Virus record (IMG/VR): IMGVR_UViG_2698536505_000004 | DNA: 13,072 nucleotides | Direction: 5' to 3' (one strand) | From: a virus | Lineage: Duplodnaviria; Heunggongvirae; Uroviricota; Caudoviricetes | Shown here: piece by piece, positions 4,077 to 12,996 of the stretch | Position numbering within the stretch: position 1 is the first letter of the stretch | Layout of the letters: each line of letters starts with the position of its first letter | Translations under genes and position numbers: made by a program | The notes under the pieces: generated by a model | The model's database searches: none | The model's input: the letters and a program-made list of their open reading frames with translations, nothing else | Told to the model about the DNA's origin: nothing

Positions 4077-4770
4077 CCGGGACTGCAGTGTTTCCCGGAC
4101 ATCATCCGGTAGATGGCTGTAGGGGTTGCCATCCACCTTATGGCTGCCGCTGTAAATCAGCGTGATTTCCACGCCCTGTTTCTCCAGCGCAGCACCGTAA
4201 TTACTGTGAGCCATCATGACGCCGATGGAGCCTGTCCGGGCGGTCTGCGTGACCAGACGCCGGGAGGCGGCGCTGGCAAGCAGCTGACCTGCACTGCAGT
4301 TCATGTCGTTGGCCAGCGCCCATACCGGTTTTATGTCTCGCACACGGGCGATGATGTCAGCACAGTCAAATGCTCCCGCCACCATCCCGCCCGGTGTGTC
4401 CATATCCAGCAGAATGCCGTCCACCATCGGATCGCTGGCAGCCTGTTGCAGACGGGCGATAATGCCGTTGTAACCGGTCATCCCCGAATACGGCTGCAGC
4501 GCCCGCGTCCGGCTGACCAGCGTGCCGGACACCGGCAGCACGGCGATGCCGTTCATGACCTGATAACTGCGGGCCTGTCGTGGTCCGTCATCATCAACGG
4601 ATAACGCCAGCGCCGCGGGTGCCTCTCCGGCAGTCAGGCTGTCGCCGGACACCGCATCCGTCAGGCGGCTGATCCCAAGCTGGCCTGCAAGCGCACAAAA
4701 GAAAACCCGCGCATAGGCGGGTTCAAGCATCAGCGGCTCATTAAAGGCCATACTGGCAATATGCGGGAGA

Positions 4771-4790: not shown

Positions 4791-8471
<3,681 letters not shown>

Positions 8472-8497
<26 letters not shown>

Positions 8498-9017
8498 TCA
8501 GCAACCCCGGTATCAGTTCATCCAGCGCGGCTGCTTTGTTCATGGCTTTGATGATATCCCGTTTCAGGAAATCAACATGTCGGTTTTCCAGTTCCGGAAA
8601 ACGCCGCTGCACCGACAGGGGGATCCCGTCGAGAATACTGGCAATTTCACCTGCGATCCGCGACAGCACGAAAGTACAGAATGCGGTTTCCACCACTTCA
8701 GCGGAGTCTCTGGCATTCTTCAGTTCCTGTGCGTCGGCCTGCGCACGCGTAAGTCGATGGCGTTCGTACTCAATAGTCCCTGGCTGGAGATCTGCCTCGC
8801 TGGCCTGCCGCAGTTCTTCAACCTCCCGGCGCAGCTTTTCGTTCTCAATTTCAGCATCCCTTTTGGCATACCATTTTATGACGGCGGCAGAGTCATAAAG
8901 CACCTCATTACCCTTGCCACCGCCTCGCAGAACGGGCATTCCCTGTTCCTGCCAGTTCTGAATGGTACGGATACTCGCACCGAAAATGTCAGCCAGCTGC
9001 TTTTTGTTGACTTCCAT
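8472..9017 (-). CDS. Nu1: Terminase small subunit gpNu1
   Basis: 181-aa ORF MEVNKKQLADIFGASIRTIQNWQEQGMPVLRGGGKGNEVLYDSAAVIKWYAKRDAEIENEKLRREVEEL... (winged-HTH N-terminus), recognised as lambda Nu1. Immediately downstream of cosB. Confidence 0.97.
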
Positions 9018-9019
9018 TG

Positions 9020-9160
9020 TTCATTCCACGGACAAAAACAGAGAAAGGAAACGACAGAGGCCAAAAAGCTCGCTTTCAGCACCTGTCGTTTCCTTTCTTT
9101 TCAGGGGGTATTTTAAATAAAAACATTAAGTTACGACGAAGAAGAACGGAAACACCTTAA
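9020..9160 (-). promoter_or_regulatory. cosB: Nu1 binding elements R1, R2, R3 and intervening AT-rich IHF (I1) region
   Basis: Reverse complement matches the lambda left-end sequence ...GTTTAAGG(C/T)GTTTCCGTTCTTCTTCG... (R3, about 9139-9154), AGAAAGGAAACGACAG (R2, about 9083-9098) and CTGTCGTTTCCTTTCTCTG (R1, about 9039-9056). The AT-rich block 9100-9130 sits between R3 and R2. Confidence 0.75.
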
Positions 9161-9194
9161 ACCGGAAAATTTTCATAAATAGCGAAAACCCGCG

Positions 9195-9206
9195 AGGTCG
9201 CCGCCC
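9195..9206 (-). other. cosN cohesive-end site (12-nt GGGCGGCGACCT on minus strand); cosQ expected in flanking 9207-9240
   Basis: Plus strand reads aggtcgccgccc at 9195-9206, the reverse complement of the lambda 12-nt cohesive end. It is flanked by CGCGGGTTTTCGCT (left-end side) and CGTAACCTGTCGGATC (right-end side). Confidence 0.88.
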
Positions 9207-9242
9207 CGTAACCTGTCGGATCGCCGGAAAGGACCCGCAAAA

Positions 9243-9257
9243 TGATAATAATTATCA
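9243..9257. promoter_or_regulatory. Perfect 7-1-7 inverted repeat TGATAAT-A-ATTATCA (Fur-box-like candidate operator)
   Basis: Read directly: tgataat a attatca at 9243-9257. It matches the 7-1-7 Fur box consensus TGATAATnATTATCA. Lies about 150 bp upstream of the plus-strand ylcI-like gene and next to cosQ. Confidence 0.35.
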
Positions 9258-9405
9258 TCTGCATGTCACAACGTGCATCTACGCCATCAAACCACGTCAA
9301 ATAATCAATTATGACGCAGGTATCATATTAATTGATCTGCATCAACTTAACGTAAAAACAACTTCAGACAATACAAATCAGCGACACTAAATACGGGACA
9401 ACCTC

Positions 9406-9639
9406 ATGTCAACGAAGAACAGAACCCGCAGAACAACAATCCGCAACATCCGCTTTCCTAACCAAATGATTGAACAAATTAACATCGCTCTTGATCAAAA
9501 AGGGTCCGGGAATTTCTCAGCCTGGGTCATTGAAGCCTGCCGCCGGAGACTGTGCTCAGAAAAAAGAGTTTCTCCTGAAGCAAACAAAGAAAAGAGTGAC
9601 ATTACTGAATTGCTCAGAAAACAGATCAGACCAGATTGA
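9406..9639 (+). CDS. ylcI: YlcI/YnfO-family (DUF3950) small protein, putative ribbon-helix-helix DNA-binding protein
   Basis: 77-aa ORF MSTKNRTRRTTIRNIRFPNQMIEQINIALDQKGSGNFSAWVIEACRRRL... resembles E. coli cryptic-prophage YlcI as recalled. The pattern basic strand (RNIRF), helix (MIEQINIAL), G-x-S/N turn, helix (AWVIEACRRRL) is typical of RHH/CopG-like folds (inference). Confidence 0.7.
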   Translation: MSTKNRTRRTTIRNIRFPNQMIEQINIALDQKGSGNFSAWVIEACRRRLCSEKRVSPEANKEKSDITELLRKQIRPD

Positions 9640-9695
9640 AGCAATTTAGATAATCGTGCAGACTACGCCCCTCATATCACATGGAAGGTACTACA

Positions 9696-10106
9696 ATGGC
9701 TCAGGTTGCCATTTTTAAACAAATATTCGATAAAGTGCGAAATAATTTAAACTATCACTGGTTTTATTCTGAACTAAAACGTCACAATGTCTCACATTAC
9801 ATTTACTATTTAGCTACAGAGAATATTCATCTTGTTCTTGAAAACGATAATACGGTTTTAATAAAAGGACAGGGTAAGGTTGTAAATGTAAGATTTTCAA
9901 AAAATAAATGCCTTATAGAAGCCACCTTAAAAGGATTCAAATCAGGAGAGTTATCATTTTACGAATACAGGAAAAATCTTGCTACAGCAGGGGTTTTCAG
10001 ATGGATTACAAATATCCACGAAAACAAAAGGTATTACTATACCTTTGATAATTCATTACTCTTTACTGAGAACATTCAGAACACTACACAAATATTTCCG
10101 CACTAA
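9696..10106 (+). CDS. DUF1398 (YbcV/YdfO-like) prophage protein of unknown function
   Basis: 136 aa from ATG 9696 ([11 protein letters not shown]...[39 protein letters not shown]...), with GGAAGG Shine-Dalgarno 6 nt upstream. The track ORF starts 15 nt earlier at 9681 without an SD. The FYEYR...AGVFRW motif recalls the DUF1398 family. AT-rich codon usage. Family call is from memory. Confidence 0.6.
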
Positions 10107-10362
10107 ATCATAACGTCCGGTTTCTTCCGTGCCAGAACCGGACTCGCTGGCATGATGAAATATGTGTACCCGGTAACCCCGGTGTGCATCGTTTTTGATT
10201 ATTCCCGCACACTCGCGCAGAAGGAGTTCCCCGTCGGGCTACGGTCTCTGTTAATACGGGAATACGGCGACGATACAGCGCATGATGTGTCAGGCTTGAA
10301 TACCTTTATCCTTTAAAAGGGATATCAGTTAAGTTATCCCGTGTAGGGTATAAACCATTATC

Positions 10363-10390
10363 AAAGCCACTCTGTAGGAAGTGGCTTTTG
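10363..10390 (+). terminator. Rho-independent terminator for the plus-strand ylcI-like/DUF1398 transcript
   Basis: Perfect 9-bp stem aaagccact / agtggcttt (10363-10371 and 10380-10388) with 8-nt loop ctgtagga, followed by a T-run (ttttg). Confidence 0.55.
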
Positions 10391-10395
10391 TAATG

Positions 10396-10423
10396 GCAAT
10401 AAAAAGCCCCGCGAATGCGAGGC
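10396..10423 (-). terminator. Rho-independent terminator downstream of the lysis cassette (minus strand)
   Basis: On the minus strand: gcctcgc-attc-gcggggc hairpin (7 bp including one G-U pair, tetraloop) followed by TTTTTATT. Plus-strand coordinates 10406-10423 for the hairpin, A-run at 10398-10405. Confidence 0.55.
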
Positions 10424-10597
10424 TAAATCCTGGTATTTGTAATGACTGGTTCTTATCTCAACACAGCCCCTTACCGCGCGCAAAATGCTCAATATCAAGC
10501 ATCAGCAATGAGATGTTTAATCTGGATTCACTCCAGAAGTGAGCACCACCCTGTCTACAGAGCCAGATGTGAAGGATGATGAGTAAAATTATCGCTA

Positions 10598-11065
10598 TCA
10601 TCGAAGGCATTGCGTCCTGATGTATTCCTGAAGCGTTCTCAGTGCTGTTTGGTCGCGGATAATTCCGTCCCGGATACCGAGAACGTTTCGTCCAGCAACT
10701 GGAGAGAGTTCGACGGTGGCATCATTGCCCATGCCGGAGGCGCTGGAGGTTTCGGCTGAGGATGGCACAGGGCATTTTCCTTTGACGAGCACCCGACCAC
10801 CATTATCAAGCTTGCGCCGAAGAGCATCATTTTCAGCTTTCGCATCAGCTAACTCCTTCGTGTATTTATCATCGAGTGCATCAGCATCACGCTGGCGCTG
10901 CTGCATGTCAGTAATGGTGGCGTTCGCCTTCTCCAGTTCACTGGCCTTGTTATCGCGCTGTTCTTTGTAGGCGATTGCATTATCACGGTAATGATTAACA
11001 GCCCATGACAGGCAGACGATGATGCAGATAACCAGAGCGGAGATAATCGCGGTTACCCTGCTCAT
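10598..11065 (-). CDS. Rz: Rz inner-membrane spanin (i-spanin)
   Basis: 155 aa from ATG 11063-11065 ([31 protein letters not shown]...), a lambda Rz-like N-terminal transmembrane segment then a coiled-coil-like region. ATGA overlap with R stop. The C-terminal third differs from lambda Rz. Confidence 0.85.
10639..10845 (-). CDS. Rz1: Rz1 outer-membrane lipoprotein spanin (o-spanin), embedded in Rz in the +1 frame
   Basis: 68-aa [48 protein letters not shown]... has a signal peptide with lipobox VVGC and a proline-rich mature part. AAGGAG Shine-Dalgarno 8 nt upstream. Wholly inside Rz, as for lambda Rz1. Confidence 0.78.
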
Positions 11066-11559
11066 TGTTGCCCCCACAAACAGACCTCACGCTCAATCTC
11101 ACGACGAGTCATCAGGCCTTTCCATTGCTTACCGCCAGCGTATGCCCAGCGACGTAGCTGGTCACATGCGCCCTTGATATCGCCCTGGTTTATTTTGCGA
11201 AGAAGAGTAGATGTTCTGAAATTGCCTGCGCCCACGTTATAGACGAACGAGTAAAGAGCGCCGCGCGTTGTTTCCGGTATATCGACTTTGATGTACGGGT
11301 TAATTTGTCTGGCTACCGTGGCAAGGTCTTTATTCAGGAGGGCTTTGCATTCTGCTTCGGTATACGTTTTACCGGGAATGATGTCTTTTCCTGTATGCCC
11401 GTGACATACAGTCCATACGCCAACGATATCTTTGTATGGTATGTAGCTGACACCTTCCAGACCATCGTTACCACTTGGGCCAGTGATTAACACTGATGCT
11501 ATAGCAATTGCTCCGCCACCAATAGCAGCAGCAACGACTTTTCGTAATGATGGAGGCAT
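11062..11559 (-). CDS. R: SAR endolysin (phage-21 R-type lysozyme, GH24)
   Basis: 165-aa [60 protein letters not shown]... has a Gly/Ala-rich N-terminal signal-anchor-release domain and an E-x8-D-x5-T catalytic motif. Close to phage 21 R as recalled. AGAGGTG Shine-Dalgarno present. Confidence 0.9.
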
Positions 11560-11774
11560 TATTCACCTCTCGCAGCCTTGCGCTTATCTTCTTTAATCTT
11601 GAAATAAAGGTTTGTCAGGTACGTCAGCAGGCCAAATACCAAGCTACCCAGCACACCTATTGCTGCCCACTGTGAGGGCGTGACTTTATCGAGCAGCTGT
11701 AAAAACCAGTAGCCAGCACTGCCTGCGGAGGTGCCGTAGGCAATGCCCGTTGTTAACTTATCCATGGATTTCAT
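11559..11774 (-). CDS. S: Pinholin (S21-type class II holin) with dual-start MKSM motif
   Basis: 71-aa [74 protein letters not shown] has two transmembrane segments and resembles phage 21 S21 (S2171 and S2168 forms). GGAGGTGAGG Shine-Dalgarno upstream. Stop overlaps R start (TAATG). Confidence 0.9.
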
Positions 11775-11961: not shown

Positions 11962-12693
11962 TTACATCATGTCTTTTTCTAAAAAAAATCTTGATGAATA
12001 TTGATGGGGAGGAACACCAAAATACCTTCTGAAAACACTTACAAAATATGACGTGTTTTCATAACCGCATATCTCAGCAACTTTTCCAACAGAATATAAA
12101 TTGTAGCTTAATAACCTTTCCGCCATCACCATTCGCTCTTCAAGAATTAACTTACTAAATGATAAGCCTTCGTGCTTTAATTTTCTTTTTAACAGACTTT
12201 CACTCAGATACAGTCTTGAAGATATATCACAAAGTCTCCATGCTGCAGATATATCCGTGTGAATAATAGCCTTAACTTTACTTCCTAAACTATTAAGACA
12301 TCCAAATAAAAAACTTTGCACTATTTTCTCTGAAGATAAGATAGCAAGACATGCAAGTGATATTTGATTTCTAACAAAATCCACAGTTCTGCCATCACAA
12401 TTCAAGCATGCAATCAAGTTCTTTAACAATGAAAAATCTTCACATTCCACCATCAAGTATGCCGGATAAAACCTTCTTACAGAAAAAGGTGAGAGTGTGT
12501 TGCTTTTAAAGAAATCATTAACTGTTTTTTCTTCAACATCTACGATCATTACATGATCTATATTTGATGAAAAAAAATCTTTTAAATTGTAATCAATGAG
12601 AACAGCACTTCCTTTTTTAAACAAAATATCTTCTTTACCAATTCGGACATCAAACGAGTTCAACACCAAAATGATAGAACATATGTATAGCAT
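11962..12693 (-). CDS. AraC/XylS-family transcriptional regulator (AppY/GadX/Rns-like), moron
   Basis: 243 aa from ATG 12691-12693 with AGGTGG Shine-Dalgarno 5 nt upstream; the track ORF begins at an upstream GTG at 12702. C-terminal dual-HTH signature ...AAWRLCDISSRLYLSESLLKRKLKHEGLSFSKLILEERMVMAERLL...VGKVAEICGYENTSYFVSVFRRYFGVPPHQY. Gene is visibly AT-rich compared with flanking phage genes. Confidence 0.8.
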   Translation of the reverse strand: MLYICSIILVLNSFDVRIGKEDILFKKGSAVLIDYNLKDFFSSNIDHVMIVDVEEKTVNDFFKSNTLSPFSVRRFYPAYLMVECEDFSLLKNLIACLNCDGRTVDFVRNQISLACLAILSSEKIVQSFLFGCLNSLGSKVKAIIHTDISAAWRLCDISSRLYLSESLLKRKLKHEGLSFSKLILEERMVMAERLLSYNLYSVGKVAEICGYENTSYFVSVFRRYFGVPPHQYSSRFFLEKDMM

Positions 12694-12996
12694 ATTATCC
12701 ACCTGATATCATTGGGGTTACACCAGGTAAGTATAGGTGGAAAATCAATATTCGCCAGTTCAACAATAAGGAAAATTTCATTGCATCACAAGTATAAAAT
12801 TATGTATTTAACTCACAAAGACAAATTATTAAACCAATCTGTTATATTATATATAGCTGCGTGGAATCATAATATTATATATTTTGACTGGCATGTTTAC
12901 TAACTTTAAGTTGCATCTCAATTGTTTCTTCAGCGTAAACAGAGTTTTTATACAAACTGACACTCTGGGTATCATAGTGTAGGTAATGACTCCAAC

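Follow-up and report, generated by a model that had tools for sequence, protein, structure and literature searches.

Locus layout and gene families

Why do two small genes stand on the plus strand between cos and Rz of a lambda-like prophage, and do they belong together? The original prediction described them as a two-gene accessory cassette, a ribbon-helix-helix (RHH) protein followed by a DUF1398 protein, resembling toxin-antitoxin (TA), superinfection-exclusion, or defense modules. In the window, i.e., the whole 13,072-nucleotide stretch of DNA that was analyzed, the neighboring phage genes (nu1, terL, Rz, R, and holin) are all located on the minus strand, and the terminase, portal, and lysis genes are intact. 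The main genes are as follows:

6572-8497, minus strand: terL
8472-9017, minus strand: nu1
9406-9639, plus strand: ylcI/ynfO-like gene, 77 aa, basic product (pI 10.6), Arc-like RHH candidate with a core of aa 1-55 and a variable C-terminal tail
9696-10106, plus strand: DUF1398 gene (ydfO/ybcV/lambda p78 family), 136 aa, product soluble and basic, without a transmembrane segment
10598-11077, minus strand: Rz

The ORF coordinates and the minus-strand flanks confirm the predicted layout of two genes running against the late operon, in the slot between Rz and cos in which lambda carries bor. As anticipated, the DUF1398 gene starts exactly 56 nt 3' of ylcI; its ribosome-binding site, GGAAGG, lies at 9683-9688. 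Both ORFs are under purifying selection (pairwise dN/dS 0.07-0.37, including lineages with dS up to 1.7), which identifies them as genuine genes. The predicted family assignments also proved correct. The 77-aa protein matches Pfam DUF3950 (PF13132; E 5e-21, 74.7 bits against a curated cut-off of 25), NCBIfam YlcI_YnfO_N (NF041551; 35.7 bits against a cut-off of 30), and phrog_949 (E 9e-33), and the 136-aa protein matches the full 119-position profile of Pfam DUF1398 (PF07166; E 3e-43, 147 bits against a cut-off of 22) as well as the YdfO structure in the PDB (2HH8; E 2.9e-67, residues 1-135).

The pair is already annotated: lambda, K-12 Qin (ynfO-ydfO), and DLP12 carry both genes, and HK630, like these three, has them in the same slot. 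The region is a lambda-family accessory stretch, extending from cos to the lysis genes, in a "Qin-type" layout, and matches to it were found in 4470 of 5426 complete E. coli genomes, with 579 records at 99% identity or more.

The YlcI and DUF1398 proteins

The RHH pattern proposed for the 77-aa protein was borne out to a moderate degree. The motif NIRFPnqmIEqI...G..NFS is in register with P22 Arc, and the AF2 monomer (pLDDT 68) contains helices at residues 19-32 and 37-55, joined by a GSG turn, and shows coil in the strand region (~13-17). The top Foldseek matches, each with E of 1 or above, are nearly all RHH proteins (Arc, NikR, CdbA, ParD2, TacA, CopA, and MazE9-N), with AtaR and VapB also among them. 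The hhalign alignment of YlcI with Arc is in register (14-47 versus 11-47) at a probability of 11%, and the alignments with RHH proteins in general (Arc, Mnt, and NikR) are likewise in register at low probabilities of 3-11%; the pairwise E-values for Arc (0.003), NikR (0.016), and Mnt (0.05) fall below those of four non-RHH controls (0.08-0.48). When the PDB was searched with YlcI, neither the sequence nor the profile search gave a significant match. Together, the motif and the models give moderate support to YlcI as a predicted RHH DNA binder.

The DUF1398 protein of the window is a distinct allele, with ~76% identity to the lambda and Qin proteins; both it and YlcI lack a transmembrane segment and a signal peptide. 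No toxin family was matched by DUF1398 in Pfam, NCBIfam, or PADLOC. In PADLOC-DB v2, YlcI gave no match and DUF1398 gave only a chance-level one, to Csx23 (E 0.023, 12.7 bits). Positive selection in the divergent center of DUF1398 was considered and rejected (dN/dS 0.13-0.49). The labels "head protein" (phrog_413) and "putative envelope protein" attached to this family are unsupported, given the missing transmembrane segment and a non-essential lambda homolog. CRISPRi knock-down of this homolog, lambdap78, gave an EOP of 1.9 in the available excerpts of the lambda study (PMC10695390), so that, as far as these excerpts go, it is dispensable for lambda lytic growth.

Several published datasets touch on the K-12 homologs. 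An ionic liquid induces ydfO 12-fold in arrays and 116-fold in qPCR (PMC4077768), and ybcV mRNA is reduced 10-fold in a pdhR mutant (PMC7660256). The ASKA ybcV clone is scored as glycogen-deficient in a list that includes the toxins hokA and yoeB, and given this screen, ybcV overexpression may have some effect on growth (PMC2853380). The statement that YdfO overexpression confers oxidative-stress resistance (PMC4077768) was set aside as untraceable to data. Full-text literature searches returned no demonstrated function for YlcI or DUF1398. A further site that touches on PdhR lies within ylcI itself:

9620-9636, plus strand: PdhR-box-like sequence AACAGATCAGACCAGAT at the 3' end of ylcI, one base off the Qin PdhR SELEX site AAcaGGTcagACCAgaT, which is tabulated between ynfO and ydfO (PMC7660256)

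Predicted regulatory sites between cos and ylcI

The stretch between nu1 and ylcI contains the following elements:

9195-9206, no strand assigned: cosN cohesive-end sequence AGGTCGCCGCCC, the complement of lambda GGGCGGCGACCT; an exact, single match, placed by the lambda/Qin/DLP12 alignment
9230-9236, no strand assigned: cosQ-like heptamer AGGACCC, read from the sequence and kept in all aligned copies
9242-9269, minus strand: putative sigma-70-like promoter GTGACA-16-TATCAT, facing cos and nu1, with 10 of 12 consensus bases
9243-9257, no strand assigned: Fur box TGATAATAATTATCA, a perfect 7-1-7 palindrome matching the consensus exactly
9332-9345, no strand assigned: perfect FNR box TTGATctgcATCAA (TTGAT-N4-ATCAA), the sole match in the window, where 0.01 were expected
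9367-9372, plus strand: candidate -10 hexamer GACAAT of a ylcI promoter, inferred from the sequence

The cosN site is a mosaic boundary towards the terminase side; in one locus (L089), the nu1/cosB side is unrelated and the ylcI side is conserved. From what is known of lambda packaging, we take the heptamer at 9230-9236 to be cosQ.

The upstream perfect palindrome of the original prediction is present in 7-1-7 form, but it does not appear to be the operator of the RHH protein. It matches the 7-1-7 Fur-box consensus that was used (TGATAATnATTATCA) exactly and lies 149-163 nt 5' of the ylcI ATG. No second match occurs in the window, where 0.06 chance matches were expected even with two mismatches tolerated, and the box was found in 102 of the 132 loci compared, lambda among them. 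The homologous K-12 nohA site binds Fur by gel shift and FURTA, and nohA (22.3 bits) and nohB (25.3 bits) are among the strongest predicted K-12 Fur clusters (PMC2189734). By K-12 homology, the palindrome is the predicted binding site of the host iron regulator Fur. The -10 hexamer of the minus-strand promoter-like site falls within this box.

The FNR box, which is conserved as well, is located 75 nt beyond the Fur box. The same 24-mer is an FNR ChIP-chip and EMSA site at K-12 nohA/ydfO and nohB, for which Grainger et al. reported marginal FNR effects, assayed in the nohA direction only (PMC1802558), and the same K-12 site is a ChIP-seq peak in the class "FNR regulation masked by Fur" (PMC3688515). 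Upstream of ylcI, scanning for promoter consensus sequences yielded nothing on the plus strand. A start at ~9379-9380 would place the center of the FNR box (9338.5) at about -40.5 to -41.5, a geometry that hangs on the inferred GACAAT hexamer. A class II FNR site is established to have a spacing of this kind, and a position of about -41.5 fits it. The Fur box lies ~130 nt from the proposed ylcI start, and Fur control of the plus-strand unit is therefore a candidate only. An Rfam search of positions 8900-10800 (E of 1 or below) returned sub-threshold chance matches only.

Distribution and linkage of the two genes

A total of 154 phage records carry YlcI and 43 carry DUF1398; in at least 111, YlcI occurs and DUF1398 does not. 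A lone YlcI gene lies beside HNH-TerS-TerL in Stx phages 2851 and JLK-2012 and beside a lambda-type nu1 in E. coli War. In lambda and DLP12, the opposite-strand gene ybcW splits ylcI from DUF1398. With lone YlcI genes in phages and ybcW lying in between in lambda and DLP12, ylcI and DUF1398 do not form an invariable pair, and the term "cassette" was not upheld. A ylcI gene is located upstream in all 43 DUF1398-bearing phage records and in every intact locus examined, which makes a one-sided dependence possible: DUF1398 may depend on YlcI. One locus truncated by IS5 has kept DUF1398, with the adjacent ylcI gone.

The window ylcI is 98-100% identical to the copies in Qin and in another compared locus (L090), and identity drops to 62-90% inside DUF1398, which indicates a recombination boundary between the genes. 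In one pair of loci compared, dS is ~0 for ylcI and 0.71 for DUF1398, and one ylcI allele was found joined to DUF1398 alleles 24% apart.

The genes are kept in functional phages, i.e., lambda, Kati, ev099, and the PhiR series. A search of viral contigs with DUF1398 yielded 80 loci that are 99-100% identical and added no diversity. Matches in genome contigs outside Escherichia (Pseudomonas, Bacillus-like, Flavobacterium, and others) are mostly lambda DNA in assemblies, many of them contigs of ~3.5 kb, and are uninformative on natural distribution.

Probable transcript ends downstream of DUF1398

Between DUF1398 and Rz, three features were delineated:

10107-10316, plus strand: conserved spacer with a 54-aa ORF (10152-10316), homologous to the lambda ybcV-bor spacer
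10355-10396, plus strand: strong hairpin (inverted repeat I2), the likely end of the plus-strand unit and possibly bidirectional; dG -21.1 kcal/mol, z -4.97
10405-10424, minus strand: intrinsic terminator of the late-strand lysis transcript, facing the plus-strand unit

The gene bor is absent from the window, and the hexamers of its promoter are mutated or destroyed. The 54-aa ORF was rejected as a third gene, given no family match, homology to lambda that falls in two frames, and indels of lengths not divisible by three; it is probably non-coding.

The terminator scan found no plus-strand terminator, and the pair's "own terminator" is not found directly after DUF1398. A hairpin just past the DUF1398 stop (10115-10143) was rejected, having a z of -1.3, similar to shuffled sequence, and no U tract. 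The first convincing plus-strand hairpin is ~250 nt on, at 10355-10396; none of 200 shuffles was equally stable, and its stem shows compensatory changes in Stx phage 2851 and L090. The 56-nt spacer between ylcI and DUF1398 is unstructured (z +2.5), which makes it plausible that the two genes are co-transcribed.

Interpretation of the locus

We consider it reasonably probable that the locus is a prophage accessory unit under host control, in which an Arc-like DNA binder is accompanied by an exchangeable cargo gene, and not a matched two-component system. Expression would come from the prophage under host control and not from the phage late program. A weak FNR-assisted (class II-like) promoter with a start near 9380, proposed from geometry only, would read ylcI; transcription would then cross the unstructured 56-nt spacer into DUF1398 and stop at the 10355-10396 hairpin. 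The Fur box would more plausibly gate the opposite promoter-like site, which leads into cos and nu1. YlcI would act as a dimeric DNA-binding regulator, and DUF1398 would be cargo that affects host physiology in lysogens.

The toxin-antitoxin or defense idea of the original prediction fails on comparison, considering the non-obligate co-occurrence, the recombination break, the lack of a toxin or defense family match, and the non-essential lambda homolog. In a type II TA system, YlcI would be an RHH antitoxin and autorepressor acting on the upstream palindrome, and DUF1398 the toxin. Such a system would accord with two small co-directional genes, the first of them RHH-like, that no terminator separates, with the RHH antitoxins among the Foldseek matches (TacA, ParD2, AtaR, VapB, and MazE9), with a C-terminal tail that is variable as in antitoxins, and with the listing of ybcV overexpression next to hokA and yoeB (PMC2853380). 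It is nevertheless very unlikely: the 111 or more phage records that have YlcI but lack DUF1398, the opposite-strand gene separating the pair in lambda and DLP12, and DUF1398 retained at the IS5-truncated locus all argue against an obligate partnership, and an identical ylcI allele with DUF1398 alleles 24% apart means that the partners do not co-vary. Moreover, DUF1398 has no toxin-family match, the 56-nt spacer is long for such a pair, and the palindrome is an exact Fur box ~150 nt before the ATG whose nohA homolog binds Fur. An anti-phage defense or superinfection-exclusion module expressed from the prophage is somewhat less improbable, yet still quite unlikely. The slot adjoining bor is a known moron slot, both genes are read opposite to the late genes and occur in very many prophages, and the neighboring lambda gene lambdap79 (ybcW) plays a part in defense biology by triggering the Vulcan system (bioRxiv 10.64898/2026.09.04.749371). 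Against this stand the failure to match any PADLOC model beyond the chance-level Csx23, full-text literature searches on these gene and family names that found no defense phenotype, the absence of diversifying selection by dN/dS even in the divergent DUF1398 center (maximum 0.49), and a pair that is not obligate.

A different kind of explanation, unlikely in our estimate, makes YlcI a packaging-linked DNA-binding factor whose site of action would be in or close to cos or the terminase genes, or which would control read-through into them; DUF1398 would be unrelated cargo. In every case, ylcI borders the packaging module on its upstream side and is read away from it, and this holds for two terminase types without relation to each other (lambda nu1/A, or HNH with a Terminase_2 TerS); in lambda-type (Nu1) copies, the conservation on the ylcI side begins exactly at cosN. 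In addition, satellite-like islands encode fusions of DUF3950 with the N-terminal DNA-binding domain of a TerS (P0309 and P0322; Pfam Terminase_2 best E 1.6e-11), and a published listing of capsid-forming PICIs with their own TerS and TerL includes YlcI/YnfO genes (PMC13612085). However, ylcI is antisense to the late transcript, a poor position for late expression. Lambda packaging is not known to require more than cosQ, cosN, cosB, terminase, and IHF, which also counts against a packaging role. A ylcI-specific essentiality or packaging effect was not found in the article excerpts returned by full-text literature searches, and the lambda CRISPRi results, in the excerpts available, concern lambdap78 and lambdap79 and not the ylcI-like ORF (PMC10695390). 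Finally, the locus could be a decaying, currently functionless prophage remnant, as many copies reside in cryptic prophages (Qin, DLP12), the WCHEC020031 copy has a truncated packaging gene, and degenerate copies exist (L124). This is extremely improbable: ylcI and DUF1398 are both under purifying selection in lineages as far apart as dS 1.7, functional phages (lambda, Kati, ev099, and the PhiR series) have retained them, and the window has intact terminase, portal, and lysis genes.

An accessory unit of a DNA binder and exchangeable cargo under host control is the reading that we prefer. A bolder and doubtful proposal, to which we give little credence, would treat DUF3950/YlcI as an Arc-like module tied to the packaging boundary: in phages, it would be a lysogeny regulator of transcription into cos and terminase, gated by host iron and oxygen status via the conserved Fur and FNR boxes next to cosQ; in satellites, a TerS-domain fusion interfering with or redirecting helper packaging; and DUF1398 would be a separately exchanged effector.

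As found, the pair is of little significance: lambda-like prophages carry it very commonly, and it has been annotated before. Its residual value is that two of the most widespread uncharacterized E. coli prophage genes, also present in lambda, lie beside exact Fur and FNR sites near cosQ whose K-12 homologs are experimentally bound. This raises the question of whether lambdoid prophages sense host iron and oxygen status at the cosQ-ylcI locus.

Comparison with known systems

Type II TA systems with RHH antitoxins (ParDE, CopG/RelE-like, and TacAT) share with the window a small RHH-like gene 5' of a second small co-directional gene. In contrast to them, the window pair has no toxin-family match, is non-obligate and without co-variation, has a 56-nt spacer, and is preceded by a palindrome that corresponds to a host Fur site. 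The Arc and Mnt repressors of P22 are similar to YlcI in size, in the N-terminal strand motif (NIRFP versus NLRWP in Arc), and in the Gly-containing turn between two helices, and mnt, like ylcI, is oriented against the late genes. However, homology to them is undetectable by ordinary search, and the window has no adjacent antirepressor gene or obvious operator.

The lambda morons bor and lom, which are lysogenic-conversion genes, are accessory units in the late region, read independently of late transcription and dispensable lytically, with a terminator-like hairpin at the end, as is proposed for the window unit; they encode envelope proteins with known phenotypes, whereas the two window proteins are cytoplasmic. 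Moron traits of the window are the opposite orientation, the terminal hairpin, the presence or absence of DUF1398 among phages, the non-essential lambdap78, and a promoter that is inferred only.

The lambda right end carries the ylcI-like ORF, lambdap79 (ybcW), lambdap78 (ybcV, "putative envelope protein"), and bor. It shares with the window the Rz-cos slot, YlcI residues 1-55 at 93% identity, DUF1398 at 76% identity, the cosQ-Fur box-FNR box region, and a homologous spacer 3' of DUF1398. It differs in having ybcW between the genes and bor with its promoter downstream, both genes being absent from the window; loss of lambdap79 by recombination with Qin has been described to yield the window-type layout (bioRxiv 10.64898/2026.09.04.749371).

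The closest layout is that of K-12 Qin ynfO-ydfO, with the same order and orientation of nohA/nu1, cos, ynfO, and ydfO, ylcI DNA that is ~98% identical, shared Fur and FNR boxes, and a DUF1398 protein with 76% identity. In contrast to Qin, the window carries another DUF1398 allele, with 62-66% DNA identity in its center, unrelated sequence 3' of DUF1398, and a complete nu1 and terminase in place of the truncated nohA.

Genomic context of the ylcI and DUF1398 genes

The window, a lambda-like prophage, carries its late genes on the minus strand; between cos and Rz it has two plus-strand ORFs, exactly as the original prediction had them.

Features of the cos-lysis region
6572-8497, minus: terminase large subunit, followed by portal and head genes
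8472-9017, minus: nu1
9195-9206: lambda cohesive-end sequence
9243-9257: exact 7-1-7 Fur-box consensus, TGATAATAATTATCA
9332-9345: exact FNR consensus, TTGATctgcATCAA
9406-9639, plus: ylcI, 77 aa
9696-10106, plus: DUF1398 gene, 136 aa
10598-11077, minus: Rz/Rz1
11062-11559, minus: endolysin
11559-11774, minus: holin

Just upstream of the holin, in a late-gene moron position, lies an AraC-family regulator gene (11962-12702, minus strand); it matches phrog_1450, its nearest NCBIfam models (YdeO, GadX and HilD) all fall below their cut-offs, and in strain WCHEC020031 this gene carries a frameshift flag in RefSeq. Directly after Rz on the late strand, a 50-aa hydrophobic ORF (10458-10610, minus strand; maximum 19-residue hydropathy 2.07; hypothetical protein in RefSeq) stops at the terminator at 10405-10424.

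YlcI as a predicted ribbon-helix-helix protein

YlcI is a basic protein (pI 10.6) with hits to Pfam DUF3950 (E 5e-21) and to the NCBIfam model YlcI_YnfO_N. Its family, YlcI/YnfO, is a small one: at 50% identity, 108 clusters belong to it in a set of 1.84 billion representatives. The core comprises residues 1-55, and the C-terminal tail varies. In the AF2 model (pLDDT 68), a GSG turn lies between two helices, 19-32 and 37-55. A Foldseek search against the PDB returned nothing significant (all E ≥ 1), and the resulting list was nearly all ribbon-helix-helix (RHH) proteins (Arc, CdbA, NikR, TacA, ParD2, CopA, MazE9-N, YiiF, AtaR). Aligned to P22 Arc, the core profile stays in register (14-47 against 11-47), as it does with Mnt and NikR; the E-values for Arc (0.003), NikR (0.016) and Mnt (0.05) each lie below those of all four non-RHH controls (0.08-0.48), while CopG, ParD and MetJ were not separable from these controls. 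The YlcI motif NIRFPnqmIEqI...G..NFS parallels NLRWPreVLdlV...G.SvNS of Arc. The RHH assignment is thus plausible from the modeled helices, the RHH-rich though non-significant Foldseek list and the Arc register; sequence and model together support it moderately, with dimerisation and DNA binding as predicted properties. At codon 12 (9439-9441), in the basic arm just ahead of the predicted DNA-contacting strand, the window encodes Ile (RRTTIRNIRF), as opposed to Thr in nearly all close relatives (RRTTTRNIRF).

Upstream Fur and FNR boxes

The palindrome at 9243-9257 had been put forward as a possible target of the RHH protein. It is instead an exact Fur box, and the homologous K-12 nohA site was reported to shift with Fur in gel assays (PMC2189734); we therefore read the palindrome as a site for host Fur and consider an RHH operator unlikely. 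Among Fur clusters predicted across the K-12 genome, the same report lists nohA (22.3 bits) and nohB (25.3 bits) with the strongest. A 24-mer identical to that in the window is the FNR ChIP-chip and EMSA site reported at nohA/ydfO and nohB (PMC1802558), and in the classification of Myers et al., nohA is one of the operons in which Fur masks regulation by FNR (PMC3688515). In the passages available from this literature, the homologous sites figure solely as the "nohA/nohB" sites that belong to K-12 cryptic prophages. Both boxes are kept in all intact copies examined, lambda included (L003, the lambda copy, 232-246); only a decayed copy has them in degraded form. In the window, 6 nt separate the Fur box from the cosQ-like heptamer AGGACCC (9230-9236), and the FNR box follows 75 nt beyond the Fur box, ending at 9345.

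The Fur box also contains the -10 hexamer of a promoter-like site on the minus strand, GTGACA-16-TATCAT, which is directed into cos and nu1. Scanning upstream of ylcI gave no consensus plus-strand promoter, so we only infer one from the sole suggestive geometry, a GACAAT hexamer at 9367-9372, which would put the FNR box at about -41.

The DUF1398 protein

The DUF1398 gene begins 56 nt downstream of ylcI behind a ribosome-binding site, GGAAGG, and its product matches Pfam DUF1398 (E 3e-43) and the NMR structure of E. coli YdfO (PDB 2HH8; E 3e-67). The protein is basic and soluble, without transmembrane segments, so nothing here supports the names "envelope protein" and "head protein" that databases give it. 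Its AF2 model was poor and a fold search with it uninformative. CRISPRi knock-down of the lambda homologue lambdap78 was reported not to lower plating, which makes the gene non-essential (PMC10695390). The K-12 homologues are, by published reports, transcriptionally responsive in the prophage state: ydfO is induced by ionic liquid (12-fold on arrays, 116-fold by qPCR; PMC4077768), and ybcV mRNA is 10-fold lower in a pdhR mutant (PMC7660256). The available passages under these gene and family names contain no report of a function for DUF1398 homologues. At the 3' end of ylcI, AACAGATCAGACCAGAT (9620-9636) is one base off the PdhR SELEX site between K-12 ynfO and ydfO, a G to A change in the GGT half-site; this similarity hints that DUF1398 genes have a separate promoter linked to PdhR.

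Co-occurrence of the two genes and the end of the unit

The two genes had been likened to a toxin-antitoxin (TA) or defence module. In every intact DUF1398 locus examined, ylcI lies upstream; an IS5-truncated locus keeps DUF1398 without adjoining ylcI. Among 50,697 phage records, YlcI occurs in 154 and DUF1398 in 43, so that at least 111 carry YlcI without DUF1398. Stx phages 2851 and JLK-2012 lack DUF1398 and have a lone, reverse-oriented ylcI that diverges from an HNH-TerS(Terminase_2)-TerL module; E. coli War likewise has ylcI by itself, next to a lambda-type nu1 and with a Rha gene after it. An opposite-strand gene separates the two in lambda and DLP12. Identity of the window to Qin and the comparison locus L090 is 98-100% through ylcI but drops to 62-90% inside DUF1398, indicating that DUF1398 alleles were swapped behind a constant ylcI; downstream, identity to L090 is back at 90-98%. 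No sign of diversifying selection was detected in DUF1398 (dN/dS ≤ 0.49), and PADLOC has no model for the protein. By these comparative results, the two genes lack three features that define type II TA pairs; the TA/defence reading is left unsupported, and the evidence argues against a functional pair, with the caveat that all intact DUF1398 loci examined do have ylcI upstream.

The remaining cassette anatomy was confirmed, except for its own terminator. The hairpin directly 3' of DUF1398 was rejected as not terminator-like; a strong terminator-like hairpin, with compensatory stem changes in relatives, occurs only at 10355-10396, facing the late-strand terminator at 10405-10424. The spacer at 10107-10316, homologous to the lambda ybcV-bor spacer, includes a 54-aa ORF, which is probably non-coding. 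Conservation of the spacer is ~90% in phages 2851 and JLK-2012, neither of which has DUF1398, and 82% in lambda, where it lies upstream of bor. The hexamers of the lambda bor promoter (TGGACA-17-TACAAT) are mutated in the window, where bor is missing.

DUF3950-TerS fusions

In four further loci, DUF3950 is fused to the N-terminal DNA-binding domain of TerS (Pfam Terminase_2; 120-129 aa). The islands bearing these fusions are satellite-like, with an integrase, a small alpA-like gene and a primase; L128 and L129 also have their own TerS and capsid, and there the island directly adjoins a prophage HNH-TerS module with its own ylcI.

DUF3950 loci in the islands
L127: 4714-5103
L128, L129, L130: 4590-4772 and 5001-5363

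In L128-L130 a second, stand-alone DUF3950 gene adjoins the fusion gene. Upstream of the 60-aa DUF3950 gene in L128 (about 4545-4590), two copies of the palindrome GGTACGTACC surround a TATAAT hexamer and look like an operator.

Conservation and comparison with known prophages

Pairwise comparison with lambda, Qin, DLP12 and Stx-phage homologues gave dN/dS of 0.07-0.37 for ylcI and the DUF1398 gene, with dS up to 1.7; both are real genes. Assemblies labelled Pseudomonas, Oceanobacillus, Flavobacterium, Kitasatospora, Cohnella and others (L095-L123) hold the lambda right end at 98-100% protein identity, many on contigs of ~3.5 kb. Such sequences almost certainly entered the assemblies as control or spike-in DNA, and they make the host range of both families look wider than it is, e.g., through "Staphylococcus" and "Bacillus" YlcI entries.

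The ylcI-DUF1398 region was matched in 4470 of 5426 complete E. coli genomes, at a median of two places per genome, and 579 records at ≥99% identity carry the RefSeq labels "YlcI/YnfO family protein" and "DUF1398 domain-containing protein". The locus is thus an already known, very common accessory region of the lambda family. Megablast and tblastn located both genes in lambda, where they occupy the equivalent slot and have the same relative orientation; the order from cos is a ylcI-like ORF, lambdap79 (ybcW, opposite strand), lambdap78 (ybcV, DUF1398), bor and Rz. Lambda-vir was reported to evade the Vulcan NADase defence by losing lambdap79 through recombination with Qin (2026 preprint, bioRxiv 10.64898/2026.09.04.749371), and lambda minus lambdap79 (L003 754-960) has exactly the ylcI-DUF1398 layout of the window (9406-10106). 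The DLP12 prophage shares the lambda layout, and the K-12 Qin prophage has the exact layout of the window: nohA, cos, ynfO, ydfO.
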